Below, piece by piece: positions 5,661 through 46,804 of a stretch of DNA of 64,000 bases. The stretch is from Sphagnum compactum (Eukaryota). The stretch lies in NCBI GenBank assembly GCA_965153455.1, contig OZ234493.1, positions 11,026,213 to 11,090,212 of the forward strand. Reading direction: 5' to 3'. The position numbers and the translations under genes were made by a program. How positions within the stretch are numbered: position 1 is the first letter of the stretch; every line of letters begins with the position of its first letter. The notes beneath the pieces are model-generated. The model searched no databases. It was given only the letters and a program-made list of their open reading frames with translations, and was not told the DNA's origin.

Positions 5661-7678
<2,018 letters not shown>

Positions 7679-10600
7679 GACTACTACAGGAATGAGGCAA
7701 ACACTTCACGCTCCAATCCACTTCACAGCGCCCACCCTCGCTGCTGCTTGAAGTGCTGCTGTTCTCTTCTGCTGTTGTTACTCTTCGCAGTCCTGTCCGG
7801 GGCGCTCTTCTCCTCTGCTGACGTCGGGATTGATGGATCGCGATTGCAGTGCGTAAGCTTGGTGTGATTTTTATATGCGCGTCGATTAATAAAAGTCTAG
7901 CTTCACGCATTGCAGACGACATCCATGGCGAGGCTTGACGTGAAAAACATGCAGATTTGCTTCACTCATACGGTCAACAAACTATATATATAATCAAACA
8001 ACTCTCTTCTCTTCTCTCGAAGGCTCCGAAGATCGACAAGTTATTGTATTCTGCGCATCTGCACGTACATGTAAAAGAAGAAGGAGATGCCGCTTTTTTC
8101 TTCCCGGAAATGAGCAAAGCCATCTCCTGATTTCCGGGGTCAATTCTGTCACCTAAAGGTCAAACCTTTGAACAGGATACGTACCTTGGTACTACTGCTT
8201 CCAGTACCTCTTGTGGGGTCTGGGATGAGCATTGAGAATCGTTGCAGCAGTCGAACCCCTTAATCCGCTTCCCATGTTCCTCTGCAATCAGGGTTCTTCA
8301 GAGTAGTGGATCCTCTTTGCATTCTTTCAGGAAGGATTGCATATTTTCTTTCCTCCTTCCCGTGAATTCTCTGGCTCTGAAGCTTCACTTTTACAGCAGG
8401 GAGGTTTTAGTCAGAAGAGTTCAGTTTTTCCCAGATAACCAAGAAGCATGGTGCTTGAATCAAGGCCTCTTCTCCATGTTTTATTCTTCCTTCCTCTAGA
8501 CAATGATCATCTTGCAGGAGTGGGAGTATGTGCCTCGTACCTAACCATTTCTCATGGAAGGACACAAATGGATTTCAAGTTTTAGGGTTTGTAAATCCTT
8601 GAAGAAATCCCTCTCAGTATGACAGTCTAAGAAGATGGCTTCTTCAGTGGTATATGGCTCACTCTGGCACATCACTTGTAAATGTTTATTACTGCAGTCT
8701 GCTGATTGAAAAGTGCAAGACACTCAGAAACTGGAAATTTGTGTACCATGAAGGCTTTCCTCAACACTTCTGGTTTGCAGCAGGATTTCCTCAGGCCTGA
8801 ATGCATGAACATTTTGTTTATGCATTCGTTTGTTTATATGTGCCATGGGCATTTCTCTCTTAGTGAGTATGTGATCATGCTAGATATTAATCTGATCCCT
8901 GCACAAGACAAATGTACAAGGTGGATATGCAATCAGCAAAGAGTTTCCCTCTTGTACCGAGCTTGACCTCCTTTCCAACTGATGAATAGTTGTTTAGCTG
9001 GTAACTTTCTCCTGGAAAACACTATCACATCTGTGGTGTATGTTCTGTTGGCAAGTAGCCTCTGTATCTGCAATTGTCACGAGATACCAAGATATAAAAC
9101 ATTTGAATCCAGATTCACTATCTGTTTGTTGGTTTGTCTGTTCTAAGAGCATCGATATGTGGGTGGAGGAGTTCATCCAGCACACAAATTGTGTGAACAG
9201 ATATGCTGGTAAAGGAATTTTGAGCATGTGCAAATGTTATGAGACTGAGAGTCATTGCAGGGCATGGGATTGGGATTTGTTGATATGGCAAAGAGGAAGG
9301 TAAAATGGTGCAGACTGTGATTTTTTCTCCCAATGTTGGCTGGCTGTGATGATCAATATTTTCTTGGATGTCAGAGAAGATGTTGTATGGCCTGTAGAGG
9401 GCCCCGATAGTGTTCATATGCATTTCTTTTGCAAGTGTTGTTTCCAGCACAATACTTAGGAATGTACATTGAAGTCACCACAGTGAAATGATTACATCAC
9501 TGTGACCAACTAGAGCGGAATTGCATAGCTGAGAAGGCTTCAGTAGTGGATCTTTTGTGATGATTTGCATCAGAGTTGTAAAAGCTTTGGTTATGCATCA
9601 AGTAAGCAAATTAACTTCATGGGGTCCTATCATGTCAACTGTTTCCTGTCAGGAAAACTGAACCTCATAGTAAGACAATAGTAGAATGATGTAAGTGCCA
9701 AATGGTAATTGACAGAATGTAGGTTTCAGAATGTGCATGGCTCCAGGGAGGCAAAAACAAGTCTGATAATGTCATATTTCTTACATCACAATAAGTGGAA
9801 TATACCCACACTTTCTTCCCTCAAGGGATTCAATATGGTACATGTAAGTACATGCACTGATGTACATATTTTGTGGGAACTATTGACAAACAATTGTTTT
9901 TCACAGTCCTGAAGATGGGCAAGAGGTCTTACAGCTTGAATATCTAGTTGGAGAGCACTTTCAAACAGACTGGTAACTTTGAACTTGATCAAGAGTCAAC
10001 TAGGGTTTCTGATCTTGATTTCTAGAGACTGGATTTTGGCTTTCAAATCTCATATGTGCAAAATGCTTTGTTTTGGTTCGATGTAGTATGAGTTCTAGCG
10101 ATTTGGAAACTCTGAATTGACCTGTGCCCTGAGGTTGGAAGCAATCAACTGATATTGTCAACTAGTAGCTGGATCTCCCTGTGTGCTTCTTGTGGCTTCA
10201 ATCTTCTGCAGCTTTGTGCTTTGTGGTTCTGGCAGGTTGGTGCGGTCGATGACACTAATCTGGTGGTAACTGTTTCTTCAAGAGGCTTTTCTCTCTGTGT
10301 TTAATGTATCATAGTTGCAATCTATATAGCATCATTTTAAGTTTCATAAGTGCCATGGCTCTGGCAGTTGTAGAATTGGAGTGGTTGACGACACTAAGTT
10401 TTTTAGTGACCCAGCTCATGCAGCATGTATGGGTGGTTCTCCATGTGATTGCTCTGGGTGTAACTAGTAGGTTTTCCCACCATGATCTTCTGCAAATTGA
10501 GAACATAGAGGTTTTAGGATTAGGTATGCTTGGTCTGAAATTTGTTGGAAAGCCTATGTAATGGCTTGCCAAGTCATTAGTTTAACAGTTGGAACTGATA

Positions 10601-13600
10601 TTTCTTTCTCTAAGTGTAGCAAAGTTGCAATATGGAGCTCTTCAGGGACTCAGTATTTTGAAGGGTCCTTGCACAAGTTTCTTGATGATTCCGCTCTAGT
10701 GAGTTGGAAGACTTTGACCACGTATAGCAAAATATTAATGTGACAGAGATCTCAGATTGCTCCAGATGAAGCTAAGTATAGCATCATGGCCAAACTTCTT
10801 CAATTTGGTACCCGCATCTTTGTGCACACCCATGCAGATTTTGATCATCTTACTATTTCTTATTGGAATCCTGAACACAACAACAAATATGTACTTGCAG
10901 ATCAGGAGAGATCCATCGTTTGAGTTGAATAAGCCTCAACCTTGGTCCAATAATTCAACCTGTCTACTTATCCCAAGTCCTGGGGGAAGTGTTCTCAGTT
11001 CCATTTTGCTCCTTTGCTGCAGATAGAGCTAATTAGAAGAGAAAGCAGTGACAAATGGATTGGTGATACATGATCAGGCTTGGTTGGCAGACACAGGATA
11101 ACTCAAAATATTTTTTTCATGCTGAAGGACCATGCAGCCAATGCTATTCCAATTTATTCACCTTTCCCTTTTTCAGAAGCATGATGTTGTGAAGGGGAAT
11201 GGTGCAGTTGCACAACACAAAGCATTAGTCCAAACAACCAAATACACTCTAGTACACAAGACAAACATGATATAAACATGACTTTTCAGAACATGGTTTG
11301 AAGAGTATGATGTTGTTACAAGACCTATAAAAGCTATGTCCAGGCTATATATTCCATCTGCACTTTATAGAAATGAAATTACATCCAATTCTTCAAAGAG
11401 ATTCCTAGACTAGGATTCATGAACTTTTGTTTTGTGCTTGATGCCTCCCAATTACAATACAATAGCTTTTGAGTGTGCAACGAGTAACATTGCCATTCCA
11501 TTGTGCTTGAGTTCTATTATTTGCTCCCCTGAGTCTCAACTACGGCAAGTGGGAGGACTAAAAACTCAAGATCCTGATAAACATTAGAGAAAGGACATTT
11601 CACATTTCCTTGGTTCATTAGAATGCCTATTCAAGTTTCCTCATGTGCCACTTGAGCCGTCAAACACATCCATCCTTGACAAAAATTTCTCAAGCATATT
11701 TAAGTGAGGGTGTTCCATCCTTGCTCATGGGCATTTCCATACATTGGTTGGAACTAATATATCCATGCTTGAATCCTTCAATTATGTAATCAACTTTAGA
11801 TCTGAAATGAAACCACCCCTATGAGTAACAATGAATCCTCTATCCTTATTGTCCCCACTCCCTTATTGTCATCACTGATTTCTATCTGCTTTGATCTTCC
11901 CTTTGTTCTCATTTGGTGACCTATGAATACTCCTTTGAAAGCAATGTTCCTTCTCCTAAGCTCTTTCAGCCATATATGCACACATCATTTTGATAGCTTT
12001 TCAAGCTGCCCATGGGGGTTGAGGAATAAAGCTTTTCTTTTGGTAAGCTATATGGACTTCAATGGGACCCTTGACAAACTCTTGCTTGGAGTGTTATGTC
12101 ATCTTTGAAACACTTAAAGCAACAGTTTGTGCCATTGTTTTTATTGCAGTCCAACATGCCAAAAATACCTGCCAAAAGACCATTTGTAACTTTCAAGAAC
12201 AAGTGAACTCCATCTATCATAAGTACTCAAAAAAACAACACTAAGAATTGTACAGACACATGTAGAAATCACAACTAGGACTGAATATGAACCAATGGGT
12301 ATGGGGAGTCGAGTACCTTGCACTTTCCCCATTTTTCTGGTTTCCAACAGTTTGTCTGTAGCCATGTAAAAGCTGAGCTACAACCAGGATACATGCTTCA
12401 AACTAATGCTTCAAAAAATCAACCAAAATGTAATCAAGTTGAAAAGCATTCAAACTGTGAGAAAACTCTTTTGGAGAGCTAGCATTCCCCTACTTAGGAG
12501 AAATCAACTCACTTGAGTTAGCACAAGAGCAAAGTTAACCAAATCGTTGACTGAATGGATTGTGCAGAACTTAATTCCAACCTGAATAACAAAGATGATC
12601 AGGTTAGAGGATTAATGGCAACATGTGCTGTAGCACTGATGTGTGCATTATGTTCATCATGAGATTGACCCCATCTTCTTCTTGTTTTCCGTCACTATTC
12701 AGTAGTCTCACTACATTTGCTTTAGGGAACAAACATGGCCCTTAGTTAAACACAAACCTAAAAACAATTTTAGCAGACAAGCCATTGATGCACGTGCATA
12801 GTGTTCGTCATGAGACTCACCATCTCCTTCCTTTCCATCCCTGGCCTGGATTTACAACATTTCCTCCTTGACCTAATTCAGGGAACAAGCATGGCCCTCA
12901 CCTAAGCTTAGACTTAGAAAATAATGACAATAGACAACCCACACTACCAAGGCGTATCTATAGCACAATTCACAGCTATTGCAAAAACAATGTAGCCCAA
13001 TTTTTTGATCTCTATGACCTACTTCACTTTTCCAAAAAAAACTTTCAGATTTGTTCACATAGGATCTCAACTTTCTTCACTCAAACTATATTACCTATAT
13101 AGAAGAATTGATTTGGCTTTTCATTACCTTAAATGCCACACAAGAACTTCATTGTACATTCCCCATACAGAATTAAAGGCATGACAATAACAGCTCGAGT
13201 GAACTCCATCAGCACATATCACCATGTTGTTTTCAGACTCTTCTTCAGCTAATTTATCAGGCCTTCTTACTGCACCATAAAAACATTACTTTTAGGAGCA
13301 AAATACCATCAAAACCCAAAGAAAGCTACAAATACTTGTTGGGTAACTGAAATTTGGTTTCTCACAAAGTTGCCATGTGCCATCTATGAACATCAAATCT
13401 CAAGTTGAAAATCCCAAATGATTTGTACTAAAAAGAAAGATGAATTGATGTGGTGATGAGAAAAAATAGGGGAAACAATTGATGACACAAACATGAAAGT
13501 GGATATGAACAATGTCACAAAGATTGTAGTTTTGCTTTTGCTTATAAGGAAGGATGTTACCACCATGTACATATATTGTGTAGAATTGTCCATGTAGTAG

Positions 13601-13925
13601 ACCTACAATACTATATTGTGATGTAAAACTGTCAAAGGGAGACTATGTGATGTGATGAGCGCCCTATACTAGTGATCTTGTCATGCAATTTGCAATTGTT
13701 TTACTCTTGAAACCAAAGCCCCAAACCCATTTGGTTAATCTTCCACATGTGCAAGATACGAGGCTAAAAACCTAAGATACGTGCAAGGAAACCAAAATTT
13801 TGGAAGGATGCATGCTCCTTACAAAGCTTCACAAAGGCTATGTTCCTTTTCAATTCTTGTTGTTCCGCTTGAGCTCCCAAGATACACCAACCTCTTAGGA
13901 TTAGATGGCGCCACAAATCCACTCC

Positions 13926-16900
13926 CTAATATCGAGCCGCACGTTTGATCAACCTGTCCTCATAATCCCCGTGCACCTTTTGAAATGGGCGTTTCTCATT
14001 GCCTCGCATTACTATCATGCCTTCTTCTGTTGGGACTGCTGATTCAAACACTTTTTCCTCAACTATCAAAGGTTTCGCAACAACGTCAAAACTCTTCCAA
14101 ATTGGCGAGTTTTCAAAGTTTCCCTTACAAAAGGCGATAAGCTTCTCATTTTTGCTGCCCAAGTATATTGTCGAAATACTGGTGAGGAGAGATATAGAGG
14201 CAGGTAGGGTGTGAAGAAATATACAATCATCAAAATCTAACCATTGCAACTTGGGCATGGCACCTTCCTCCACCTCAGGAAATTCAGCAAGCCAAGACTG
14301 CCCAAGGTTAAACAATTTAAGAGCTGGAAAGGCACCTCGACGTGTGAATGATTGCGGAAGCTTTTTGATTGACAGTCTAAGGACCAATGAACCTAGCCTA
14401 GGAAGATTATCTAAGGCAGGCAAGCATACTAAATTGGGACAATTGGTCAATGCTACATTTTCTAAATTGGGACAATCATTCAATGTTAAATTGACTAAAT
14501 GGGGACAATGATTCAATGTTAGGCTTTGTAAATTGGTAAGAAGGCTCAATCTTAAGGTCTTGAGATTTAAGAATGAATTCATCTGCGAGGTAAAGACTTT
14601 GATTTTACCGGTATGTAATGTGAGGTCTTCAAGTTCTTCCGTTGATTTCAGTTGATCAAGTGTGGAATCTGAGCCTTTATGGATAGTTAATGACCTCACA
14701 TGTGAGGTTCCATACCATGGAAATAAATTATGATTATCTATCTTTAGATTTGTAAGACTAGGTAAGACCCTTCCAAATGCTCGAGAAAGACGACAACCCA
14801 AGAGGTTAAGGGATTTAAGTCGTATCAAACCATGAAATCTGACTGGCAGATATTTCACTGCAGAACATTGATATAAGTTGAGAGTTCTCAACATTTTAAG
14901 TTTCTGTATTGACAATGGCAGTCTCTCTAAACGTACACAACTTTCAAGATCAAGGACCACCAGCATTTGTAACTCCCCTAGCGAGTAAGGAAGTTTTGTG
15001 AAGGAACAAAATCCAAGGTGAAGATAAATCAAATGCTTGAGATTGGTAAACCCTTTTGGGAAAGCTTTTAGGGACCTGCCAAAAGTTAGGTCCAAACTTA
15101 TCAGTAAACTACAGAAATAGTTCTCAACTTTGCAAAAAGTGGTTAGTCATCCATTAGGAGAAATTTTGTTCAATTTTAACAGTTCTAATCTAATTTGTGA
15201 AGTCCTTACACATAATCATTAAAAACTCTCACATAATGCAAGCTTTAGATACATCAAATGATTGTCAAGTTCGTTGGGCAAAGATTCTCACTTGTTGAAA
15301 CTTAAGTCCAAAACCTTGAGATTTTGTTGAATGCCTTTCAAGAAGCCAGTTGGCAAATCCTTCAATTGTTCATTGTGAGAAAGAAGAAGTGTCTGCATAT
15401 TGGGTGCAGATATCTTGGTAGGGAGTCTCTTCAAGTTGTTGTCATTCAGTGATAGGCGACGAACAGCAAGTGACTCCTTAGCATTTGTTCTCCACTCTTG
15501 TGGGAATTCTTCCAAATGGCGACCAGGTTGATAGAGAGCAAGTTGCTTTTTTTCATCTGCATCATGACTTTGTATAATGTGGAATGCCAAGTCTCTCAAG
15601 ACACGATGAATTTTACAACACAACTTGTTTTCAATATCAGACCCTAGTTCAATGAGTGATCGACCTATCAACAACCCCAACACATGGTAGGTATCTCCTT
15701 CAGGATCATCTCGAAAGTCTCCTGGAACCAACCCTTCTGCAACCCAATATTGAAACAACCTGTCTTGCTCCAACAATTCATCTTCACGAAATGCTGCAAA
15801 GTAAAGAAAACATTCCTTGGCATTGGCATGATCAGCATTCTCTAGATCATCGTAGCTAGTCTTTAGGCAATCAAACAACTGCTTTTCCACATCTTGATGT
15901 GTCATGCGTGATTCCTGTAGCTTTTTAAGTTCTCGCTCCCACTCTCCAGGCGACTTCTTGCCAATCATCACTCCACCTATCACTTTAAGAGCCAAGGGAA
16001 GACCTTGACATTCCTCAACTACTAAATGGGCCAATCCCTCTACTCCAGGGGGAATGTTATTTTGGCCAAATGCATGCACACAAAACAACCTCCAACTATC
16101 TTCTTCTGAAAGCTTGTCCATGGGTAATTTTGTTGCTTCTGTTACTCCTGCTGTCAGTAATACACCTTCCTTTCTACTAGTCCATAGTGTAACACTACCA
16201 GGTCCTTTAGCTACGTCCAGCCATTCTATGACACCCTCTTCCCAAACATCATCTACAATGAAAAGTGCCCTCCTACTTGAAAACTCCTGGTACAATATAT
16301 CCCTGTAATGAGTTTGACTCAAGGTGTTGAGCTGTACAAGATTTGGACACAATTTCTCACTCAAAGTTCGATAGAGTGACCTGATGTCAGGATCTTTTCC
16401 AACAGTCAGCCAAATGATATTTGCATTTCCAAAATGTTGTTGCACCTCCATGCTATTGTGGACTTTTCGAGCAAGAAGTGTTTTCCCCACCCCACCTTTG
16501 CCCCAAACTCCAACAGAATGAGGATCTGGACCACACTGTCTTGAGAGTAACAATTGTTGCAGCGTCCCAATAGACTCGTCCAAACCAAAGACAAGCTGAG
16601 GCACATGTAACTTTGGCGAAGGTTGTTGAGGGTCAATCGTTGCCAAAGTCTCCATCGCATTGTCATGGTCATCAGATGCCTTCAAATTTTGCAAAGCAGT
16701 TATGATTGCAACAGTTGCTTCCTCAGGTTTCAACGCCTTACCAATAGATGGCTTGAAACATTGTCGTGTAACATCCTCCAATTGTCGTGCGACATTCGGC
16801 AATTGTCGAGTGACAATCGACAATTGGTTCTCCACAGATTGCAGTGCATGTTGAGTGTCTTTGGTCGCATTTTCGACTTTTACCGATATAGACAAAGCCA

Positions 16901-17285
16901 AATCCACCCCAACCAGAGGTGCTTGTTGCAAGAGCGCCTCCACACTCTCCGTTAATTTGTTAATTTCTTTGGCTGCACGATGTGTAGACCAAGGAGCTGC
17001 GAATCTTGGATGTTGCTCATTGGACTTATTCAATGTTGTCTCTGCGGCCTTCAATCGTTCCTCAAGTTCAGTCAACCATTTCTCCACCAAGCTCACATTC
17101 GAACTCAGATTAGGGGCCTGGTTTGCTATGTGTTGTAGAAGAGGCTGTAATCTCAAGAGGAGAGCACTTAATTTTGTACAACTCTTGTCATACTTCAAGG
17201 TAATTTCTACAGCATCAATCACTCGTTTTAATAGGGGTTGCAACTGCCCAAGAATCCCAAAAACTAACCCAGGCTCTATCAACAT
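13926..17285 (-). CDS. RPW8-like CC-NB-ARC-LRR immune receptor, copy 1. Exons 17285-15292 and 15108-13926, about 1058 aa; C-terminus shortened by a frameshift
   Basis: N-terminal four-helix RPW8-like domain; P-loop GKGGVGKT; kinase-2 LFIVDDVW; RNBS-B GSVTLWTSR; RNBS-C LSEEDSWRLF; CQGLPLALKVIG; RNBS-D CFLYFAAFRED; MHD position is IHR; LxxLxLxxC LRRs. Phase-2 intron AA|GTGAGA...TGTAG|T joins the two ORFs in frame. Confidence 0.93.
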
Positions 17286-17392
17286 TTTGGATCACACTTT
17301 TGCACTCTCGTGACATTGAAAAAACTAGGTAAAATCTCTCGCTCAATCACTAAATCCTTCCTCTCAACTTTGAACCTTTGCTCTAGTATAGT

Positions 17393-20300
17393 GACCATGA
17401 AACCTCTAACAAAATGTCCATCAGCAACATTTTGCTCAGCCAAGGAAATGACTTTGTGTTCAGTTTAATCATTTCCTTCAATATCCGTGTTCATCTAATG
17501 ACAAAACAGTGAACAAAAACAAGCCAAATCAACACTCAACAGAAAGAAGGTAGACGTTCATATGCCAAAAAACTTGACCTTTCATGCTGATCTTGAAAAG
17601 CCACAAAATTCCTTCCGGTAGTCTACTCCCGACCAAGAATTTGGGGGAGATGAACAAAGCTAAAAGAGATTCGAGACTCCCCCAAGTTTGACTAATGACA
17701 TTCCTGCAACTTCACCCCTCCAACGAACTGTCTCAAGCCTCTTCTCTACTGAACCAAAAAAGAAAAAAGAAAAGTAGAAGCTTAAAGCAATTCCTGATGA
17801 CGGTGTGTTGTTGTAGTTTAGTGTCTAATCCTTGGCATTCCACCCCCACAACCCCTGAACAGACAGATGGTGGTGGTCTGAATAGGTCCTGGCAATATAT
17901 AATGGGCCAGACAGAACCAGCACCGATGGAGAACTCTGTGCGCAGCGTTCTGTAATTTGTAATCCCAGTAAAGCACCTTCCTTGAAAGTTTGTGAACCGC
18001 GTATATCATTCACATAAGTGATTTTGATGTCCATTCACCAAACTCTTCACCTAACCCCTGTAATTTCCTAGGTGATACAAGGGAAAAGTATTAAATCCGC
18101 CAAAGGTCTTGAATGGCAGCAGTACAGAAGTATTGCTGCAATTTTTTTACTCGAACTGGCCCATTTTGCAGGATTCTCTTTTCACCTTTCACTCGGAACA
18201 CAGGTTTTGTGTCCATCTTATTTATTTGCTAGATATGTTATGGATATTATATACCCTTAGTGGGTACCCATAATATATATACACCCAGTATCCATCACAT
18301 GGCAGATTATGGGAAAAGAAATTGTCTGGGCATGACCCGATTTTTTGGGGAAAATATTAATAGGGCCAAAGGGTAGACAGGGCAGAAAAGAATGCAGCAG
18401 TAGTTGTGAAAGACCTTTGGCCGACTAAATATTTTTCTGACCTTTGGACTGGGACAAGTCCTTGTTTACTGGTTTCACTTTTGGTTGTGCAAGTTGTGGT
18501 CTGATTCATGTATTAGATGATTCCACTTTCAATTGTGACGGTTCCATTAGTGATGGGATCATTGCTCCAGGACACCAGTTACTCGTTCCAAGAGGGCCTG
18601 GTAGAACCAGTTACCAACTGACACAACCTCTTCCTGCCATCCCAGCTTTGATGCATTCCTAGGTGGAATGTGCCCTACCAAGTCCATTTCATAGGCATGT
18701 GTTGAAGGAGCCTTTCACCTAGTTGCAAGAGTGAAAATTTGGTAGTTTGTTGTGTGTTTACGTGCTTTTCTCTCGTCGGAGAAAGTTTTAAGAAGTGCCC
18801 TCCTCCTTACTATAAAAACATTTTTTTAGTTTTTTCACACACTCGTGCTTATCTGTAACTTCGACGCGTGTGGTTCATAGGTTTAGGTTTTAGTGTAACA
18901 AAATAGGTTTGAAACATAAATTCAAAGTGCAAAGAAAAGTGAAAAGAATGCATAAAAAACACATCTGACCCTTTCAAATTGCATAGCTTGTAGTGCAAGC
19001 TTCAAGTGATAATTCTGACACCATCATAACTTGGCCATCATGTCTGCTGATGTCTAAGACATGTCAGTTTTCAGAAAATTAATTGGCAGAGTCTTGATGA
19101 ACCTGCTACGAAGCATCTTTTAGAATATTTTATAATATTTTATTTGTCAAAATGGAAATTTCAAAATTAGAGAATTATTTGGCAGAGTCTTGATGAACCT
19201 GCTATTCAACTACGGTATATAAATTGTGGGCGGTGGCCTCCAATAAGTAAGACAATTGGTCAGTTTTGACGCGTATATGCAGGCACATAAATAGCCACCC
19301 ACCACCGCTTACACTCCGCTTCCAACATGCTTCTCAATCTTCACCTACTCCAACTTGAACTTTCTGCAGTACCTTTCTCATCACTTCTTTCAAAGCATTT
19401 TCACCACACATCTGTAAAATATTTTTATTGGCAAGGATACTATGTTTAGATTCATATAGAGTATAGTAGCTTAAGGGATTTTGGCCCCTAGGTGATAGGT
19501 CTATTTTTACATGAGGATTTTTGAAAGATGATATTTTCGCTTGTGTTGAAACTTGAAATTAGTTATAGAGTTATAACAGCTTGAAGGATCTTGGTTTTTT
19601 TAAAGGATTCTTTGAAGATATATTTTTGCATGGTGAAATATTTGAGTTTCCATAATTCTTCTTTTGCCTTAAGATGCTTTTTAATTTAAATGGCAAGGCC
19701 ACAGTGTGACACAATCCTTGTTAAATCTTGGAGCAAGATAGCGCAAATCTCCTTGCTCTCTGTTCAAAATAGCCCAAAAAATAGATTTTTGTATTGTGAA
19801 TTTGGTTAGTGACAATTATTTGTCCAAATGTACATGAGCAAATGGTCTTTCACTGGTTGAACTGACTTTCTTGATTTGTGGGGACATTGAGCATTAAACA
19901 TCAACATATTTTAATGTAAATGTGTAGAGAGAACTAACAATGTGAGGTGGAGATGCCCTCCAGCTTCTCAATCTCCACCTACTACAACTTGGAGTTTTGG
20001 ACTTTCTTTCTGCAAAGTTTGGCAGGGTTTCATCATCATTTTGGACTTCCAGGATGGCCTTTCCCACCAGGTCTTCCTTCAGGCTTTTCTCACCCAACTT
20101 GAGAAATTTCCTAGTGGATTGGAATGCACCTCATTTCTCTGGACTTTCTGCATGATTTGGGCCCCTAAAGCACTCTGAGAAATTTCCTAGTGTACTTGGA
20201 AGGCACCCTATTTCTCAGTGCACCTAGTCTTCGGCTCCTTAATGCGAGAATATCACCACTTTGGGGCTTTACCCTACACTTTCCGATCAGACCGACACGA

Positions 20301-20850
20301 GGTTGTTGGACATCTCATCAAATGTATGGCCAGAATTAGCCCATCAACAACTCCAAGGGCAAAGCTGGGCTGTCAGTTACCGATGTCTCCTTTTGTATTT
20401 TCAATCCGAAACGAGTAGTATGCTGTGTACTTGATGGCTCCTCTTTTTGAAAACATAAACTAACACCACCAAGCAAGTGTAAATAGGATCACAATTGCTC
20501 TCTCCTGAAGGCATCAAGGTTACTATATAAGAGCCATCAGGATTCCTAACTTGAGCCTGGTACTAACCATGTACTACATGGCCACAGTGGCAAACACCAT
20601 GTCCCACCTATGCCATTAAGTCAGAAAGAGGTTTTCTCCAATTTTTAAAATTTTAGGTAATTAAGGACTGAAGTTTATGGGGATTTTGGAATTTTGCAGA
20701 TCTAAGTAGGCTGTTGAGCTGGAAAAAAATAATTAGTTTGATTCTGGATTCCAGTTAAGGGTTTGTCTCCTATAACATATCCCCAATCCCGCACACCTTG
20801 ACTCCAGTGTCTTACCCTCTCTGATTTTGCGTTGATCCTTGAAACCATAG
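17393..20850 (-). repeat. NLR-upstream module U1 (promoter/5' region plus decayed transposase-like sequence)
   Basis: Homologous to 43381-46804 (U3), 20870-23555 (U2) and 53507-57277 plus 63260-63540 (U4). Confidence 0.85.
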
Positions 20851-20869
20851 GGTAAGCTGGCCCAAAGCT

Positions 20870-31394: not shown

Positions 31395-34300
31395 TTGTTG
31401 CCAATTGCCCACCTTCAAATGCAATGTTGTTACAAAATGCATGTAACCCACCTTTGAGAAAAGAATATTGTCACAAACATGAATAATGTTTCAATATGTG
31501 TAGTTGAATTCACATATGAAAAATATCAACATTGCAAAAATGGATAGAATACCCCTCCCCTTCTTTGGAAAGTAAACTTACCATTGTTTATGGTTTCAGG
31601 AAGAAACTCTTTATCATTATGTCAATTTCATCAAAGTCTTTCTTTCAACACACTAATAAAAAATAATAACTTGTGAAAGTATGTTGTAAACTATATTTGA
31701 ATTTTTTTCTTTTCATGGTGCAAAAAAGTTACATTAAATTACCACCTCCATATAATGAGAGAATGATTACTTTAAATGAACTACTATTTCCATGAGTACA
31801 ATTTGTATGTAAACCCAAAATTTCAAGTTCCCTCTTTTTTAAAAGCTTTGTTGCAATGTTTGAAAAATAGGTAGCAAATGTGTCAATGTGAGTAGTTGGT
31901 GGAGAAACTTCGAGTAAATTTGACCTATTCTAAGGCCCATTCAATCAACAAGTATTGCATTGATGGGATTCTATGTGGTACTTCCTAGTTGTGCATTGTG
32001 TGACAACATGGGTGAGTTTTAATTCTAAACATGGTTATCCATCTAGTTCTATATTACATGCCTCACAATCATTTTCAAGAAAACCGTAAAGATACTTCAA
32101 CCATTGTAATCCTACATTTTCAAATAAATTGCTACCTATAAAAGTAAGAACAACATGATGAATGGCTGAGATTTGGACCTAGAAAGACCAATCCCTTATG
32201 CTTAAATATAAATCCATTCAATTTGCATGTCTCCATATTCATAAGTTTATGTTAATGTTTAGGGTAATGGAGATTCCTATCCAAACTTGGACATTTTAAA
32301 GTTGTTCAATTTCCCCCATTTTTCGCTCTTTCTATTATAAATAATGAGAACCAAAATATTTACTCCAAGAAATCTAAAACAACAACACCACTAGAGTTGG
32401 TAGCCCCGACTAAAGAACCCATGCAAACCTAATTGGAACAATTCGTTGTCATCTAGGACCAAACACCAAAATGTGCAATACCTAAATGGAATTGAAAACT
32501 CAACCTGTTGGTTTGCATTATCATAATACCATACTATCTTCCAAATTGGTTGTTCCAATTTGGAAGGTTTATGGTTTTTTTTACTAAATATAAATATTTT
32601 TGAACTTTTGAATGAATTTGTGATATCATTTAAGATTATTGAGTTTACAATAAAGGAAAACTAGAGAAAATGGCGCAAAATGATCAATCTACAATATGCC
32701 AACTTAATCATTTTCAACCAATTCTAGGTAATAGATGACCATACCCTAATTGATGATAAAAACATTTTTTCAATGCTATATTTGCTTAGTTGGTGTCTCA
32801 TCACAGTGTAAAATATTACTAGATTGAGAACTAATGAATTTTGAAAAGCTCATCAATAACCTAAACTAAAGGGGATTGGCATTCGAACCCTACCTAATAC
32901 CTTGCAATAGTGATACTTATACTTACCATGGACAAACTTGTGTATATTTGTGTCCCATTTGGTATGCAATGTTGGTGGATGCCCAAACAATTTTATCAAA
33001 CGTTTTACTATAATCATGGTCAAAATGCACATGAATTTTTAGACCCAAAAATCTAATTGTTAATAAGATTATGATTTTATGGACATGAGTTTCTAGCATT
33101 TGTGTGGAAAAAGAGCCTATAAAATGTGGTGGTTTTCTTGGAAGGTGGCATTCAAGGTCTGAAAATGTTGGACTCCAACAATTGAAAGCTAGACGTGTAA
33201 CATGGTTATAAAAGTTAGACTCTGCATGTTCAAATGGGTTTTTGGATGGAAGGAATGAGAGGATGAATGGGTAGGGCAAAGGCCCAAGGGACGTTCGCAA
33301 ATGTGCATGAGTGGGAATGTCCTCAATTTTAAAGGACGACCTAAACATACCAAGATCCCCGGGCCTAAGAGGGGGAGCGTTCTTAGGCCTACACCTTGAG
33401 AATGGGAGGGATCTGATGGATTCCAATCTGGATTGTGAAGGTCTTAATTATATGTTTTGCAAGAAAGTTCTCCAATTTTGTGATGTCACCAGGTTGGTGA
33501 TCATCCATAAGCCAATTTGGCTATTAACAAGATATGAAGGGAAAAACATTTGAACATCCTTATATATCACTGGCTACCCTACATTAACCGTCTATACAAA
33601 TCTGATGATTCTTCCAGATATTTTTGAAATTCTTTTCATTTTTTGGCATTAAAAAAAATTCATTGAATTTGCAGGCGACATCCATGGCGAGGCTTGACGT
33701 GCGAAACATGCAGATTTGCTTCACTCTGACGGTCAACAAACAATCTATAAATTAAACAACTTCCCTCTCTTCTCCGGAAGTCGCCGCAGATCGACAAAGT
33801 TTTGTTTTCTGCGGATCTGCACGTACATGTAGATGAAGAAGGAGGCGCTTTCTTCTCCCCGAAAATCAGCAAAGCCATCTCCTGATTTCCGGGGTCAATT
33901 CTGTGGCCTAAGGGTCAAACCTTTGAGCAGGATAGGTACCTTGGTGCTACTTCTTCTAGTATATCTTGTGGGCTTTGGGATGAGCGTTGAGAATCCTTGC
34001 AGCAGTGGAATCCCTTAATCCGGTTCCCATGTTCCTCTGCAGTCAGGGTTTCTCAGAGTAGTGGATCCTCTTTGCATTCTTGGAGGAAGGATTGCATATT
34101 TTCTTTCCTCCTTCCTGTGAATTCTCTAGCTCTGAAGCTTCACTTTTACAGCAGGGAGGTTTTAGTCAGAAGAGTTCAGTTCTTTCCAGATAACCAAGAA
34201 GCAGGGTGCTTGAATCAAGGCCTCTTCTCCATGTTTTATTCTTCTTTCCTCTAGACAATGATCATCTTGCAGGAGTGGGAGTATGTGCCTCGTACCTAAC

Positions 34301-37300
34301 CATTTCTCATGGAAGGACACAAATGGACGTCAAGTTTTAGGGTTTGTAAATCCTTGAAGAAATCTCTCTCAGTATGACAGTCTAAGAAGATGGCTTCTTC
34401 AGTGGTATATTGCTCGCTCTGGCACATCACTTGTAAATGTTTATTACTGCAGTCTGCTGATTGAAAAGTGCTGGACACTCAGAACCTTGAAATTTGTGTA
34501 CCATGAAGACTTTTGCTCCTTTGAGGTGGGCTTTCCTCAACACTTCTGGTTTGCAGCAGGATTTCCTCAGGCCTGAATGCATGAACATTTTGTTTATGCA
34601 ATTTTTTGTTTATATGTGCCACGGGCATTTCTCTCTCAGTGAGTATGTGATCATGCTAGACATTGATCTGTGCAGGAAGATCCCTGGACACGACAAATGT
34701 ACAAAGTGGACATGCAATCAGCAAAGAGTTTCCCTCTGGTACCCTGCTTGACCTCCTTTCCAACTGATGATAGTTTTCTCCTGGAAAACACAATCACATC
34801 TGTGGTTTATGTTCTGTTGGCAAGTAGCCTCTGTGTCCGCAATTGTCATGAGATACCAAGATATAAAACATTTGAATCCAGATTCACTATCTGTTTGTTG
34901 GTTTGTCTGTTCTAAGAGCATCAATATGTGGGTGGAGCAGTTCATCCAGCACACAAATCGTGTGAACAGATATACTGGGAAAGGAATTTTGAGCATGTGC
35001 AAATGGTACGAGACTGAGTGTCAGTGCACGGCATGGGATTGGGATTTGTTGATATGGCAAAGAGGAAGGTTAAATGGTGCAGACTGTGATTTTTTCTTCC
35101 AATGTTGGCTGGCTGTGATCATCAATATTTTCTTGGATGTCAGAGAACATGTTGTATGGCCTGTAGAGGGCCCCAATAGTGTTCCGATGCATTTCTTTTG
35201 CAAGTGTTGTTTCCAGCACAATATTTAGGAATGTACATTGAAGTGCCTGGTCTCGCCACAGTGAAATGATTACATCACTGTGACCAACTAGAGCGGAGTT
35301 GCATAGCTGAGAAGGCTTCAGTAGTGGATCTTTTGTGATGATTTGCATCAGAGTTGTAAAAGCTTTGGTTATGCAATAAGTAAGCAAATTAACTTCATGG
35401 GGTCCTATGATGTCAACTGTTTCCTGTCAGGAAAACTGAACCTCATAGTAAGACAATAGTAGAATGATGTACGTGCCAAATGGTAATTGACAGAATGTAG
35501 GTTTGAAAATGTGTATTGCTCCAGGGAGGCGAAAACAAGTCTGATAACATCATATTTCTTACATGACAATAAAGCGGAATAGAGCCACACTTTCTTCCCT
35601 CAAGGGATTCAATATGGTACATGTAAGTACATGCACTGATGTACATATTTTGTGGGAACTATTGACAAACAATTGTTTTTCACAGTCCGGAATATGGGCA
35701 AGAGATCTTACAGCTTGAATATCTAGTTGGAGAGCACTTTCAAACAGACTGGTAACTTTGAATATCAGGAGTCAACTAGGGTTTCTGATCTTGATTTCTA
35801 GAGATTCAAATCTCATATGCGCAAAATGCTTTGTTTTGGTTGGATGTGGTATGAGTTCTAGCAATTCGCAAACTCTGAATTGACCTGTGCCCTGAGGTTG
35901 GAAGCAATTAACTGATGTTGTCAACTAGTAGCTCGATCTCCCTGCGTGCTCATTGTGGCTTCAATCTTCTGCAGCTTTGTGCTTTGTGGTTCTGGTATCA
36001 TAGTTGCAATCTATATAGCATCATTTTAAGTTTCATATGTGCCATGGCTCTGGCAGTTGTAGAATTGGAGTGGTTGATGACACTAAGTTTTTTAGCGACC
36101 CAGCTCATGCAGCATGTATAGGTGGTTCTCCATGGGATTGTTCTGGGTGTAACTAGTAGGTTTTCCTACCATGATCTTCTGCAAATTGAGAATATAGAGG
36201 TTTTAGGTTAGGTATGCTTGGTCTGAAATTTGTTGGAAAGCTTTGGTAATGGCTTGCCAAGTCATTGGTTTAACAGTTGGAAGTGATATTTTTTTCTCTA
36301 AGTCTAGCAAAGTTGCAATATGGAGCTCTTCAGGGACTCAGTATTTGGAAGGGTCCTTGCACAAGTTTCTTGATGATTCGCTGTAGTGAGTTGGAAGACT
36401 TTGACCGAGTATAGCAAAATATTAATGTGGCAGAGATCTGAGCATTCTGCAGATAAAGCTAAATATAGCATCATGGCCAAACTTGCTCAATTTGGTACCC
36501 GCATCATTGTGGACACCCATGCGGATTTTGATCATCTTACTATTTCTTATTGGAATCTGGAACACAACACTGAATATGTACTTGGAGATCAGGAGAGATC
36601 CAATGTTTGAGTTGAATAAGCCTCAACCTTGGTGCAATAATTCAACCTGTTTACTTATCCCAAGTCCTGGGGGAAGTGTTCTCAATTCCATTTTGCTCCT
36701 TCCCTGCAGATAGAGCTAATTAGAGGAGAAAGCAGTGACAAATGGATTGGTGATACATGATCATGCTTGGTTGGCAGACACAGGATAACTCAAAATATTT
36801 TTTTCATGCTGAAGCACCATGCAGCTAATGCAATTCCAATTTATTCAGCTTTCCCTTTTTCAGAAGCATGATGTTGTGAAGGGGAATGGTGCAGATGCAC
36901 AACACAAAGCATGGGTCCAAACAACCAAACACACTCTAGTACACGAGAGAAGCATGAATACTCCACTTTTCAGAACATGGTTTGAAGAGTATGATTTTCC
37001 TTGTTACAAGAGCTATAAAAGCTATGTTCAGGCTATATATTCCATCTGCACATTATAGAAATGAAATCACAGCCAATTCTTCAAAGAGATTCCTAGACTA
37101 GGATTCATGAACTTTTGTTTTGTGCTTGATGCCTCCCAATTACAATACAATAGCTTTTGAGTGTGCAATGAGTAACATTGCCATTCCTCATGCGAATGGT
37201 GACTATGCTTATGCATCTTTTGCCATGTCTCAGTACTATGATGATATGGATGTTCAAGGACCATGTTCCATTGTGCTTGAGTTCTATTATTTGCTCCTCT

Positions 37301-39537
37301 GAGTCTCAACTATGAGAAGCAGGAGGACTAAAAACTCAAGATCCTCATAGACATTGGAGAAAGGACTTTTTTGCATTTCCTTGGTTCATTAGAATGCCTC
37401 TTCAAGTTACCTCATGTGCCACTTGAGCCATCAAACACATCCATCCTTGAGAAAAATTTCTCAACCACATTTAAGTGTGGGTGTTGCATCCTTGCTCGTG
37501 GGCATTTCCATACATTGGTTGGAACTACTATATCCATGCTTGAATCCTACAATTATTCAATTAACATTGGAGCTGAAATGAAACCACCCCTATGAGTAAC
37601 AATGAATCCTCTATCCTTATTGTCACCACTCCCTTATTGTCATCACTGATTTCTATCTCGTTTTGTCTTCCCTTTGTTCTCATTTGGTGACCTATGAATT
37701 CTCCTTTGAAAGCACTATTCCTTCTCCTAAGCTTTTTCAGTCATATATGCACACATCATTTTTGATGGCTTTGCAAGCTGCCCATGGCGGTTGAGGAATA
37801 AAGCTTTTCTCTTGGTAGGCCATATGGACTTCAATGGGACCCTTGACAAACTCTTGCTTGAAGTGTTATGTCACCTTTGAAAAACTTACAGCAACAGTTT
37901 GTGCCATTGTTTTTATTGCAGTCCAGCATGCCAAAAATACTTGCCAAAATACCATTTGTAACTTTCAGGAGCAAGTGAACTCCATGTATCATAAGTACTC
38001 AGAAATACAACACTAGAAATGTACATAAACATGCTGAAATCACAACTAGGATTGCATATGAATCAAGGGGTATGGAGAGTCAAGTACCTTGCACTTCCCC
38101 CATTGTTTTGGTATCCAACAGTTTGTTTGTAGCCATGTAAAAGCTGAGCTGCATCCAGGGTACATGCTTCCACTAGTGCTTCAAAAAATCAACCAAAATG
38201 TAATCAGGTTGAAAAACATTCAAACTGGGAGAAAACTCTCTTAGAGAGCTAGCATTCCCCTACTTAGGAGAAATCAACTCACTTGAGCTAGCACATGAAT
38301 AAGGTTAACCAAGTCGTTAACTTAATGGATTGTGTAGAACTCATTTCTGACCTGAATAACAAAGATTATCAAGTTAGAGGATTAATAGCAACATGTGTTG
38401 TAGCACTGATGTGTGCATTATGTTCATCCTGCTCTTGTTTTCCATCGCTATTCAATAGTCTCATTACATGTGCTTTAGGGAACAAATATGGCTCTTAGCT
38501 AAACAGAAACCCAAAAACAATGTTAATAGACAAGCCATTGATGCACATGCAAATTGTTTGTCATGAGACTCACCATTGCCTTCCTTTCCATCCTTGGCCT
38601 GAATTTAAAACACTTCCTGTTTGACCTAATTCAAGGAACAAGCATGGCCCTCACCTAAGCTTAGACTTAAAAAATAATGACAATAGACAACCCACACTAC
38701 CGAGGCATACCTAGAGCACAATTCACAGCTGTTGCAAAAACAATGTAGCCCAATTTCTTGATGACCTACTTCACTTCTCCAAAAAACACTTTCAGGTTTG
38801 TTTTCACATAGGGTCTCAACTTTCTTCATTCAAATTTGTTTTGGCTTTTCATTACCTTAAATGCCACACAAGAACTTCATTGTACATTCCAAAGACAAAA
38901 TTTAAGGCATGACAAGAACACCTCGAGTGAACTCCATCAGCACATATCACCATGTTGTTTTCACACTCTTGTTCAGCTAACTTATCAAGCCTTCTTACTG
39001 CACCATAAAAACATTATTTTTAGGAGCAAAATACCATCAAAACCCATAAAAACTACAAATACTTGTTGGGTAACTAAAAATTCGTTTCTCACAAAGTTGT
39101 CATGTAGCATCTATGAATATCAAATCTCAAGTTGAAAACTCCAAATGCTTTGTACTAAAACAAAGATGAATTGATGTGGTGATGAGAGAAAAAAAGGGGA
39201 AACAATTGATAACACACAAATAGGAAAATGGATATGAACAGTGTTACATGATTCAAAGATTATAGCTTTGTTTTTGGTCATAAAGAAGGATGTTACCACC
39301 ATGTACATATATTGTGTAGAATTGTCCATGTAGTAGACCTACAATACTATATTGTGATGTTAAAGTATCAAAAAGAGACTATGTGATGTGATGAGCCCCT
39401 TATACTAATGATCTTGTCATGCAATTTTCAATTGTTCTACTCTTGAAATCGAAGCCTCAAAACTATTTGGTTAATCTTCCACATGTGCAAGATATGAAGC
39501 TAAAAACCTAGGTTTCCCTGAAGTAATACTCTTTGTG

Positions 39538-43276: not shown

Positions 43277-43380
43277 GATTTTGGATCACACTTCTCGTGA
43301 CATTGAAAAAACTAGGTAAAATCTCTCTCTCAATCACTTCATCCTTCCTCTCAACTTTGAACCTTGGCTCTAGTATACTG

Positions 43381-46300: not shown

Positions 46301-46804
46301 ACTCCAAAGGCTCTGGCAAGGCTGGGCTGGCAGTTACCTATGTGTCCTTTTGTCTTTTCAATCCAACACGAGTAGTATGCTGTGCACTTGATGGCTACTC
46401 TTTTCTATAACATAAACTACACCACCAAGCAAATGTAAATAGGATCACAATTGCTCTCTCCTCAAGGCATCAGGGTTACTATATAGGAGCCGTCAGAATT
46501 TCTGAATTGAGCCTCGTACTAACCATGTACTACATGGCCACACTGGCAAACACCATGTCCCACGTATGCCATTGAGTCAGAAAGAGATTTTCTCCAATTT
46601 TTAAAATTTTAGGTAATCAAGGACTGAAGTTTATGGGCCTTTTGGAAGTTTGCAGATCTAATTAGGCTGTTGAGATGGCAAAAACAATTTGTTTGGTTCC
46701 TGATTCCAGATAAGGGTTTGTCTCCTATAACATATCCCCAATCCCGCACAACTTGACTCCAGCATCTCACCCTCTCTGATTTTACGGTGATCCTTGAAAC
46801 TGTA
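43381..46804 (-). repeat. NLR-upstream module U3
   Basis: Colinear with 17393-20850. Confidence 0.87.
45290..45860 (-). pseudogene. Decayed transposase-like sequence (Sola2-like motifs) inside module U; also at about 19330-19900 and 56400-56700
   Basis: LLYIWTNNCQGPNSQYKNLFF..FLS followed, in the uninterrupted U4 copy, by TDVL*NCFERSDGKGPAES. This resembles the xSDGxxxQYKN ... WNFFxxxHGKGxxDG pattern of Sola2-type DDD transposases. Confidence 0.4.

Follow-up and report, generated by a model that had tools for sequence, protein, structure and literature searches.

Both NLR genes in the window (the whole 64-kb stretch of Sphagnum compactum DNA analysed here) encode arginine at the position of the MHD aspartate, and this IHR motif has been inherited across a clade, where it is tolerated, rather than being damage to a single copy. 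With this arginine, the known MHD switch gains a new natural variant. The MHD Asp is the residue most often mutated to turn plant NLRs on, and models of NLR auto-inhibition derive almost entirely from flowering plants. A moss family that is expressed, has many copies and carries the opposite charge at this residue offers a ready test of the Asp, which may be indispensable for the off state or just one of several solutions that work.

The motif and its register

On the minus strand, positions 15617-15585 of copy 1 read tgt aaa att cat cgt gtc ttg aga gac ttg gca. The copy 2 counterpart is identical except for cgg in place of cgt, and the peptide from both genes is C-K-I-H-R-V-L-R-D-L-A. Re-translation of 15603-15611 (ATTCATCGT) and of 41585-41593 (ATTCATCGG) gives IHR each time, confirming the earlier note, which had reported IHR in both paralogs with different Arg codons. 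Both copies have the His of MHD position 2, with Arg instead of Asp at position 3. In a phmmer search against solved structures, ckIHRvlrdl pairs with ckIHDmvrdl of ZAR1 and with tQHDvlrdl of the RPW8-type NLR 8zf0. Because IHR aligns to IHD and QHD in these two proteins, the Arg occupies the position of the MHD Asp.

Gene models and tandem duplication

The coordinates of both genes are given in Table 1. Exon 1 of copy 1 opens with a predicted four-helix CC domain starting MLIEPGL. Its intron is supported by four polyA RNA reads joining 15073/15075 to 15290/15292, and Sphagnum orthologues read LDLSFNK/SLKA over this position. A further 11 junction reads pass from the exon 1 end into letters matching the exon 2 start of copy 2. 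Exon 2 of copy 1 encodes 72 aa (three LRRs) fewer than that of copy 2, seen as an alignment gap, and a 1-nt deletion between 13940 and 13941 leads to an early stop, with loss of a conserved C-terminal tail of ~45 aa. The copy 1 model is 1047 aa long, against 1174 aa for the whole protein of copy 2, whose tail is complete, like that of the Sphagnum fallax orthologues.

Table 1. Positions of the two NLR genes, their motifs and the duplicated units in the window
Feature	Position	Strand	Evidence
Copy 1, MHD-site codons ATT CAT CGT = I-H-R (Arg561 from Met)	15603..15611	-	re-translation
Copy 1, coding exon 1 (CC, long linker helix, NB-ARC, first LRRs)	15292..17285	-	ORF, Pfam, RNA-fixed end
Copy 1, intron, 216 nt, GTGAGA...TGGCAG	15076..15291	-	polyA RNA joint and Sphagnum orthologues
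Copy 1, coding exon 2 (LRR domain)	13926..15075	-	Pfam LRR_14, alignment
Copy 1, P-loop GKGGVGKT (clade-specific K at position 2)	16479..16502	-	alignment and translation
Copy 1, RNBS-B / sensor I, TSR replacing TTR	16173..16181	-	alignment and translation
Copy 2, MHD-site codons ATT CAT CGG = I-H-R (Arg564 from Met)	41585..41593	-	re-translation
Copy 2, coding exon 1, starts MIEPGL	41274..43276	-	ORF, Pfam
Copy 2, intron, 214 nt, GTGAGA...TGGCAG	41060..41273	-	homology
Copy 2, coding exon 2 (LRR domain, full C-terminal tail)	39538..41059	-	Pfam, orthologue comparison
Copy 2, P-loop GKGGVGKT	42461..42484	-	translation
Copy 2, RNBS-B TSR	42155..42163	-	translation
Tandem segmental duplication unit 1, carries copy 1	7910..20865	.	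self-BLAST
Tandem segmental duplication unit 2, carries copy 2	33669..46820	.	self-BLAST

Based on self-BLAST, the two units of ~13 kb share four collinear blocks with 86-93% DNA identity, and the exon 1 proteins are 89% identical. Both genes lie on the minus strand in direct orientation, 26 kb apart. They are recent tandem duplicates, and IHR is common to both by descent; since the genes sit in a tandem segmental duplication, the motif in both copies is not an independent coincidence. The earlier note took a shared Arg with one synonymous codon change to suggest a tolerated or selected feature, but such sharing between recent duplicates tells almost nothing.

Domains, motifs and predicted fold

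The encoded proteins have the make-up of plant NLRs, with an NB-ARC domain above the Pfam threshold (PF00931, 151.4 bits, cut-off 23.5, E 3.5e-44), a winged-helix domain (PF23559, 31.4 bits, cut-off 27; WH_DRP is matched in copy 1 exon 1) and C-terminal LRRs (LRR_14, 64.7 and 91.9 bits, cut-off 40). A phmmer search matched 26 solved NLR/Apaf-1 sequences, among them ZAR1 (1.1e-28) and NRC1 (1.4e-26). An extra Pfam domain, such as an integrated decoy, was found in neither protein.

The other motifs had been described as canonical. This holds for the catalytic residues (GxxxxGKT, hhhhDD and GLPLAL are intact), but P-loop position 2, RNBS-B and RNBS-D differ from relatives. The two copies and 17/17 clade rows all carry the nucleotide-binding motifs GKGGVGKT, LFIVDD, TSR (with the sensor I Arg) and GLPLAL. 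P-loop position 2 is K in the clade and M in 111/116 relatives, RNBS-B reads TSR where 113/116 relatives have TTR, and RNBS-D reads FRED in 14/17 clade members, compared to FPED in 102 of the 116 relatives.

An AF2 model predicts N-terminal helices at 8-32, 36-61, 66-92 and 100-122 (pLDDT 63-85) and places the Arg as the first residue of WHD helix 563-576, right after strand 557-560 (P0001 numbering). Resting, ADP-type structures are nearest to this model (rmsd 3.8 over 424 columns for the NRC2 resting state, 3.0 over 350 columns for the NRC1 NB-ARC, 22-35 for resistosome chains), although a closed AF2 model is typical of the method and says nothing on the real state of the protein.

Distribution of the arginine

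The nearest database matches of both NLRs are Sphagnum proteins. The site is covered in 18 of the 23 proteins with at least 83% identity, and 16 of these read IHR and two IHH; a third His copy was seen in DNA (CAT, locus L007). A tree built from 54 NB-ARC rows places the 17 clade rows together in a single group (SH-aLRT 99, stem length 0.32), with P0143 (IHD, GMGG, TTR) as sister sequence. The alignment proposed as a check in the earlier note, together with this tree, shows that IHR marks one Sphagnum CC-NB-ARC-LRR clade. Across 133 aligned NB-ARCs, 112 have D, 15 read IHR, two IHH and one each VHS, VHA and MHG, with one row misaligned; outside the clade, Asp is found in 112 out of 116.

A phmmer search against 1.84 billion representative proteins gave 18,893 matches at E <= 1e-3. 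Among the best 150 of these (153 aligned stretches), Arg after x-H occurs in the query's own cluster only, and the next match is at most 51% identical. An additional, longer protein search returned mostly distant angiosperm NLRs. The clade members with a species name belong to S. fallax, S. troendelagicum, S. compactum and S. tenellum. Judged from these comparisons, the clade is a small, Sphagnum-restricted CC-NB-ARC-LRR family.

The stem branch saw changes at several positions that are highly conserved elsewhere, namely K265, 344-346, S372, V417 and R563 (P0001 numbering), with the P-loop going from GMGG to GKGG and RNBS-B from TTR to TSR. The step from GAY to an Arg codon needs two nucleotide changes. 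His562 (P0001 numbering) is unchanged in 98/98 rows of alignment A1.

Transcription and maintenance of the reading frames

Stranded polyA RNA provided 708 reads at >=96% identity, all oriented as expected for a minus-strand gene; 293 of them match at >=99%, while reads at 96-99% identity are not assignable to a single paralogue. The motif site is covered, with a depth of 56 at both 15600 and 15634, and the LRR exon is thinly covered, by 1-11 reads. The GT..AG joint in the RNA agrees with the annotated junction of orthologues. Metatranscriptome contigs from runs X1, X2 and X4 carry a relative of exon 1 that is 96.4% identical, with none of the 31 listed differences (of 33) in 15603-15611. These contigs were not counted as proof of expression, because such libraries can contain DNA.

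At about 9% divergence, frames of 1047 and 1174 codons are still open. In neutral simulations with 294 random substitutions, 0/2000 stayed open, with a mean of 11.4 stops. Over 11 exon 1 copies, dN/dS is 0.56 overall, 0.30 for HD1 and 0.38 for WHD; across the clade, CC and NBD reach 0.71-0.78 (NBD 0.71), and copy 1 against copy 2 gives 0.75. An NBD value of 2.4 between the two copies (3 synonymous and 24 non-synonymous changes) was discarded as not significant, with a binomial p, calculated by hand, of about 0.11. The reading frames of the clade appear to be under weak purifying selection.

These data bear on neutral drift in a family that is on its way out, in which a relaxed stem would have left expressed relics or decoys without switch function. 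The number of highly conserved positions changed on the stem fits this idea, as do dN/dS values near 0.7-0.8 in CC and NBD, the frameshift and LRR deletion of copy 1 and the stop codons in the related metagenome loci L009, L013 and L014. We nevertheless consider it very unlikely, given the open frames and the outcome of the simulations, the lower dN/dS of HD1 and WHD, the intact catalytic motif residues, the strand-specific transcription with correct splicing and intact members in at least four named Sphagnum species. Based on the polyA reads, splicing and ORF simulations, IHR is not confined to untranscribed or decaying copies, the finding that the earlier note had said would speak against its proposal.

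Codon changes at the arginine site

Only two sites vary in the stretch 554-569 (P0001 numbering), which is invariant otherwise, and the Arg site is one of them. Its codons in 12 DNA copies are CGT (7), CGG (2), CGC (2) and CAT (1), and over 11 DNA copies there were three synonymous changes and one non-synonymous change (p about 0.11, not significant). The earlier wording, a tolerated or selected feature, can be kept for its first half, the motif being clade-wide and transcribed, but this 3:1 ratio does not carry the second. As the clade is young (dS about 0.1), Arg would be expected to be kept in most members even without selection.

His replaced Arg at least three times, probably through a CpG transition, CGT to CAT. 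The IHH members were also considered as intermediates of a path from D over H to R, since one of them, P0135, branches first in the clade, with a support of only 82. However, the IHH sequence P0132 is nested in the clade, L007 (CAT) adjoins IHR sequences, and recurrent CGT to CAT changes account for the pattern at least equally well.

A proposed switch with arginine

With moderate confidence, we lean towards working receptors that are still auto-inhibited, in which the His-ADP latch is kept and a basic helix-cap residue is allowed by a remodelled pocket. Expression and conservation suggest that the receptors are probably auto-inhibited. The change from Asp to Arg took place on the stem branch, along with Met to Lys in the P-loop and TTR to TSR in RNBS-B, after which the IHR family continued to grow in tandem, being transcribed and spliced and retaining long ORFs. 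The invariant His, which bonds the ADP beta-phosphate in solved NB-ARC structures, would retain the latch, and the residue capping the next WHD helix could be basic (Arg, sometimes His). Such a residue might be tolerated because the surrounding pocket is remodelled; following directly after the latch His, it might, as we infer, shift the ADP/ATP set-point. In the NRC1 crystal structure, the MHD His contacts ADP and the Asp is absent from the ADP hydrogen-bond table, so the role of the Asp in holding ADP, put forward in the earlier note, is at most an indirect one.

A rule coupling the P-loop Lys to the Arg was rejected, as GKGG-type loops also occur with VHD, IHD and LHD among the best 150 representatives. 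Since this Lys is also found in relatives keeping H-D, the joint remodelling of the pocket may be coincidence.

The Arg might instead be a gain, acting like the sensor-II arginine of AAA+ proteins and reaching the beta/gamma phosphate with the P-loop Lys, so that the switch would be rewired. In the predicted fold it comes right behind the phosphate-binding His, as the opening residue of the WHD helix; K265 and R563 (P0001 numbering), two added basic residues close to the phosphate-binding loop, date from the same branch; and clade members that lack Arg have His here, not an acidic or hydrophobic residue. GKGGVGKT presumably resembles the deviant Walker A motif of MinD/ParA-type ATPases. Yet a P-loop Lys goes with a normal H-D in other relatives, and the three Arg to His changes, probably CpG transitions, fit a loosely constrained site equally well, which makes a gain quite unlikely in our view. 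A rewired switch would bring a tighter ADP latch or an ATP-tolerant closed state, with activation departing from the ADP-release logic of angiosperm D-to-V mutants, and this is improbable to the same degree.

Another possibility might be a primed or constitutively active receptor, in which loss of the Asp weakens the closed state, as in engineered D-to-V mutants or rice RGA4 (TYG), and which is held by a partner, by low expression or by turnover. MHD point mutants are often autoactive, and the Gly of RGA4 at MHD position 3 is likewise linked to autoactivity. In addition, the predicted N-terminal helix bundle and the MAEPL-like start are intact, so that the protein could kill cells, and RNA depth over the LRR exon is low. 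A partner is harder to find: none of the 64 further ORFs of at least 85 aa in the 64-kb window has an NB-ARC or LRR match, no second NLR type or head-to-head partner is seen among them, and the two copies are in direct orientation. Moreover, the ADP-contacting His is kept, a dangerous allele is hard to square with a family that has grown to several copies in a genome, such as three for S. fallax, altered MHD motifs in Pikp-1/2 are not autoactivating, and WAI3 (MHH) needs a gain-of-function mutation. We therefore regard a primed receptor as unlikely.

The altered but still auto-inhibited receptor that we favour can be addressed with a defined trio of substitutions for swaps, M to K, T to S and D to R/H. 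If the Arg turns out to be neutral, autoactivity of bryophyte NLRs should not be predicted from the MHD motif; an Arg that tunes the switch would offer a new handle for engineering NLR sensitivity.

Comparison with known NLR systems

The Sphagnum proteins differ from RNLs, which have QHD. Their motif starts with Ile, their RNBS-D reads CFLYFAAF(RED) against CFLDLGxFP, and the RPW8 Pfam similarity of the N-terminus is weak (E 1e-4, 22.3 bits, under the 30.4 cut-off), which places them outside the RNLs. Sequences of S. fallax with RPW8-like N-termini and CNL-type NB-ARC motifs were already described by Van Ghelder et al. (2019). The M(L)IEPGL start resembles, at the level of sequence, the MAEPL motif of non-flowering-plant CC domains, and the closest Sphagnum relatives start MVEP[MLI]. 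Like the CC(MAEPL)-NLRs of non-flowering plants, these are CC-NLRs from a non-flowering plant with a predicted four-helix N-terminal bundle. In Chia et al. (2024, PMC11218826), which deals with CC(MAEPL)-NLRs, the MHD motif is mentioned 0 times. A literature search returned no paper joining MHD, IHR and NB-ARC; these S. fallax motifs may already be visible in Supplementary Fig. S2 of PMC6691002 and in the PMC11218826 data sets.

Natural variants of the motif are known from rice, with IHP in Pikp-1, LHH in RGA5 and TYG in RGA4, and wheat WAI3 reads MHH at this site in the alignment to solved structures. WAI3 needs a gain-of-function mutation in the LRR for activity. These four are natural, functional receptors whose third motif residue differs from Asp, as it does in the Sphagnum clade, and the minority form I-H-H of the clade matches the x-H-H type of RGA5 and WAI3. 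However, each of Pikp-1, RGA5, RGA4 and WAI3 is either a single gene or part of a head-to-head pair with integrated domains. Pairing of the RGA4/RGA5 or Pik type was not seen within the 64-kb window, and in Sphagnum an entire tandem family is fixed for a charge-reversing Arg, with no partner NLR within 64 kb.

Compared to ZAR1 of Arabidopsis (IHD) and NRC1 of tomato (VHD), the domain order and fold, the flank ckIH-vlRDLa and the ADP-binding His are the same. The Sphagnum family departs from both in having Arg or His for Asp, GKGG for GMGG, TSR for TTR and mostly FRED for FPED.

Motif and distribution

Re-reading the minus strand confirmed the claim of the earlier note that both NLR copies carry IHR at the MHD switch. 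The text around 15603-15611 is TGT AAA ATT CAT CGT GTC TTG AGA GAC TTG GCA, and the text around 41585-41593 is identical except for the Arg codon, CGG. In a phmmer alignment against solved structures, the window's ckIHRvlrdl lies opposite ckIHDmvrdl of ZAR1, tQHDvlrdl of an RPW8-type NLR and kMHHvirql of wheat WAI3. This puts the Arg at the position of the MHD Asp. The exon-1 proteins of the two copies are 89% identical, and because the genes sit in a tandem segmental duplication, the shared IHR is not an independent event.

The closest proteins (83-91% identity) carry the source names Sphagnum fallax, S. troendelagicum, S. compactum and S. tenellum, accompanied by fragments from S. jensenii and S. 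balticum and many metagenome proteins; S. fallax has three of these genes on one chromosome-scale contig. The MHD site is covered in 18 of the 23 near proteins, with 16 reading IHR and two IHH. The next relative, protein P0143 (59% identity over the NB-ARC query), reads IHD, and the further Sphagnum NLRs among the matches listed all read [VLI]HD. The 17 clade rows group together (SH-aLRT 99) in an NB-ARC tree of 54 rows; their stem is 0.32 substitutions per site long, and P0143 is the sister of the group (support 93). Across an alignment of 133 rows, one of them misaligned, the third position of the motif is Asp in 112, Arg in 15, His in two and Ser, Ala or Gly in one each. At E <= 1e-3, 18,893 matches came from an exhaustive phmmer search among 1.84 billion cluster representatives. 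Among the best 150 of these (153 aligned stretches), Arg was found solely in the query's own cluster, and the other genuine non-Asp states were MHG (three), MHN (two), IHH, VHH, MHP and VHG; the second-best match had at most 51% identity. Based on the clade counts, the tree and this search, IHR is the mark of a single, young, Sphagnum-restricted family, so that the question whether it defines a clade, raised in the earlier note, can be answered positively. Outside this clade, the MHD Asp has been lost singly in P0156 (Sphagnum compactum, VHA), P0235 (VHS) and P0031 (MHG).

Gene models, locus and transcription

Pfam identified an NB-ARC domain in both copies (E 3.5e-44 and 7e-41), together with an NLR winged-helix domain and LRRs; the N-terminus is RPW8-like, with a score under the curated threshold. 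Annotated Sphagnum orthologues span the same splice junction, with LDLSFNK before it and SLKA after it.

Features of the locus (window positions)
Feature	Position	Strand	Remarks
Copy 1, NLR open frame	15288-17291	minus	
Copy 1, LRR frame	13926-15146	minus	
Copy 1, gene model	exon 1 15292-17285, exon 2 13926-15075	minus	1047 aa, Arg 561 from Met
Copy 1, intron	15076-15291	minus	GT..AG joint in stranded polyA RNA reads
Copy 2, NLR open frame	41270-43285	minus	
Copy 2, LRR frame	39538-41094	minus	
Copy 2, gene model	exon 1 41274-43276, exon 2 39538-41059	minus	1174 aa, Arg 564 from Met
Tandem segmental duplication units	7910-20865 and 33669-46820		86-93% identical; carry copy 1 and copy 2
Further duplicated blocks	20892-27166 vs 48100-56490		82-90% identity, rearranged order
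Degenerate tandem repeat block	1088-1747		self-matches offset about 70-300 bp, 72-79% identity
Neighbouring feature	3213-3788	plus	
Neighbouring feature	5664-5936	minus	
Neighbouring feature	48418-48759	plus	
Neighbouring feature	59398-59904	minus	

The rearranged blocks past the NLR-bearing unit indicate that the locus is a larger, reshuffled tandem array with a period of about 26 kb. The neighbouring features comprise a SUKH-1/SMI1-KNR4 domain ORF (E 1e-7), an IspF/YgbB-type gene exon (E 1e-19) and Tc5/pogo-type transposase remnants (HTH_Tnp_Tc5, DDE_1).

Relative to copy 2, copy 1 is without 72 residues (three LRRs). The loss of 1 nt between 13940 and 13941, where an RNA depth of about 3 is too low to exclude an assembly error, also removes a C-terminal tail of about 45 residues that is kept in copy 2 and in the S. 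fallax, S. compactum and S. troendelagicum proteins. From the frameshift and the LRR loss, copy 1 is partly decayed; copy 2 shows no such decay. The copy-1 tail (13926-13990) is legible in another frame.

RNA evidence came from one stranded polyA run labelled with the species of the window's best-matching records. At >=96% identity 708 reads were found, all oriented as for a minus-strand transcript; 293 reach >=99%, and those of 96-99% are not assignable to a single paralogue. They cover 29 of 30 bins, with a depth of 56 at both 15600 and 15634; in the difference rows listed (49 weaker ones lie beyond these), nothing deviates at 15603-15611. Four reads contain the copy-1 splice joint. As 11 further junction reads go on into the exact opening sequence of copy-2 exon 2, a copy-2-type transcript is spliced likewise. 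The possibility that IHR occurs only in untranscribed or decaying copies thus falls away, with stranded, spliced RNA over the site and copy 2 undecayed.

Four RNA reads skip 948 nt at 15794-16741 (minus strand) in frame and with GT..AG ends. This would remove approximately residues 182-497 (linker, NBD and HD1), so that the CC would directly precede the WHD and LRR; the reads could stem from a minor isoform or from a paralogue at another site. A depth spike of 95 with many loose read ends at 15780-15815, coding for RNBS-D, is probably due to partial mapping of other Sphagnum NLR reads onto this conserved segment. Upstream of the start codon, 17326-17778 shows transcription on the strand of the gene at a depth of 44-62, more than in the first coding bins. 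This stretch is part of an element with at least four window copies (17393-18009, 20893-21192, 43380-44001 and 53508-54124) and could represent a 5' UTR, an independent transcript or a repeat.

Companion changes and the switch

Stem-branch changes were called by comparing the 17 clade rows with the 116 other rows. The second P-loop position is Lys in the clade (GKGGVGKT) and Met in 111 of the others; RNBS-B is TSR where 113 others have Thr; LFIVDD stands where others have LLVLDD; and Leu replaces Met two residues past the Arg. RNBS-D reads FRED in 14 of 17 clade members versus FPED in 102 of 116 others. The sister P0143 retains GMGG, TTR and IHD. Walker A Lys/Thr, Walker B Asp-Asp, the sensor-I Arg, GLPL and the MHD His are intact in the clade, and this His (His562 in the numbering of protein P0001) is unchanged in 98 of 98 rows. 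The other motifs, described in the earlier note as canonical, are so in their catalytic residues, but not at P-loop position 2, RNBS-B and RNBS-D. A P-loop Lys is also present in relatives keeping H-D, so its coupling to the Arg is not strict. The GKGGVGKT loop (16479-16502, 42461-42484) bears a possible resemblance to KGGxxGK[ST], the 'deviant Walker A' motif in ATPases of the MinD/ParA/NifH type; GKGG-like loops also occur in a small number of further NLR representatives of bryophyte type (P0323, P0342, P0315). A gain of the sensor-II kind, with both the Arg and the P-loop Lys reaching the phosphates, is rather improbable; the analogy with sensor II is drawn in the literature.

The ADP hydrogen-bond table of the NRC1 NB-ARC crystal structure includes the MHD His (NE2 to O3B), and the Asp is absent from it. 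Reviews likewise hold that the His-beta-phosphate bond keeps the WHD against the NBD. In an AF2 model of exon 1 (mean pLDDT 77; 87 over residues 561-570), I-H ends a beta hairpin and the Arg opens WHD helix 563-576. Structures of the resting ADP type superpose on this model (rmsd 3.8 for the NRC2 resting state, 3.0 for the NRC1 NB-ARC and 4.6 for Apaf-1-ADP), and resistosome chains do not (rmsd 22-35); such a closed form is typical of the method and says nothing on the protein's actual state. We lean towards a functional receptor that would retain the His latch on ADP, tolerate a basic residue capping the WHD helix within a remodelled pocket and possibly have a shifted set-point. A primed receptor dependent on restraint seems unlikely, given that no partner NLR is found among the 64 other window ORFs, the two copies are in direct-repeat orientation, the family has expanded and WAI3-type precedents exist.

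Frame maintenance and selection

After 294 random substitutions in a neutral simulation, 0 of 2000 copies were still open (mean 11.4 stops), and after 147 substitutions 0.15% were; the open frames are therefore not accidental. Pairwise-summed Nei-Gojobori dN/dS over 11 exon-1 DNA copies (both window genes plus nine metagenome loci) is 0.56 overall, with 0.78 for the CC, 0.71 for the NBD, 0.30 for HD1 and 0.38 for the WHD; copy 1 versus copy 2 gives 0.75 over the whole CDS. Maintained ORFs and a constrained WHD/HD1 make a drifting relic family the least credible reading. Exon-1 relatives on metagenome contigs with in-frame stops (L009 with two, L013 with one and L014 with six) are pseudogenised members of the same family, which is a typical fast-evolving NLR cluster with live and dead members.

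In 12 DNA copies the Arg codon is CGT (seven), CGG (two), CGC (two) or CAT, encoding His (one). On a DNA tree of 11 rows with this codon masked, it changed at least four times, three synonymous and one non-synonymous; by hand calculation on these rows, selection is not significant (p about 0.11 against a 1:2 neutral expectation). His arose at least three times, in P0132, nested inside the clade, in P0135, basal with weak support (82) in the 54-row tree, and at locus L007, whose nearest proteins read IHR. CGT to CAT is a CpG transition. Within-clade dS is only about 0.1, so most clade residues are unchanged anyway; the Arg site is one of just two variable sites in stretch 554-569. This shows that a basic or imidazole residue is tolerated, with no reversion to Asp, and that positive maintenance of Arg is unsupported. 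Of the 'tolerated or selected' feature proposed earlier, the first half holds, as IHR is tolerated, clade-defining and expressed; selection does not follow from the 3:1 codon counts.

Comparison with known systems

Variation at the third MHD position is already known. Documented natural forms other than x-H-D include IHP in Pikp-1, LHH in RGA5 and TYG in RGA4, the Gly of the latter being linked to autoactivity; Pikp-2 reads VHD and RNLs QHD. The deposited chain of wheat WAI3 has MHH at this site, and its activating mutation, L619F, lies in the LRR. Van Ghelder et al. describe S. fallax sequences joining RPW8-like N-termini with CNL-type NB-ARC motifs, and Chia et al. 2024 (PMC11218826) treat the MAEPL CC of non-flowering plants and leave the MHD unmentioned. 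MHD, IHR and NB-ARC together had no match in the literature searched, and a search for the MHD motif in bryophyte NLRs found nothing on the IHR variant; alignments in supplements may show the motif. Together with the documented departures from x-H-D, this makes IHR a new natural version of an established switch motif, within a receptor class that is itself known. As a clean experiment of nature, it bears on the NLR switch residue used most, in a lineage whose NLR regulation has barely been studied.
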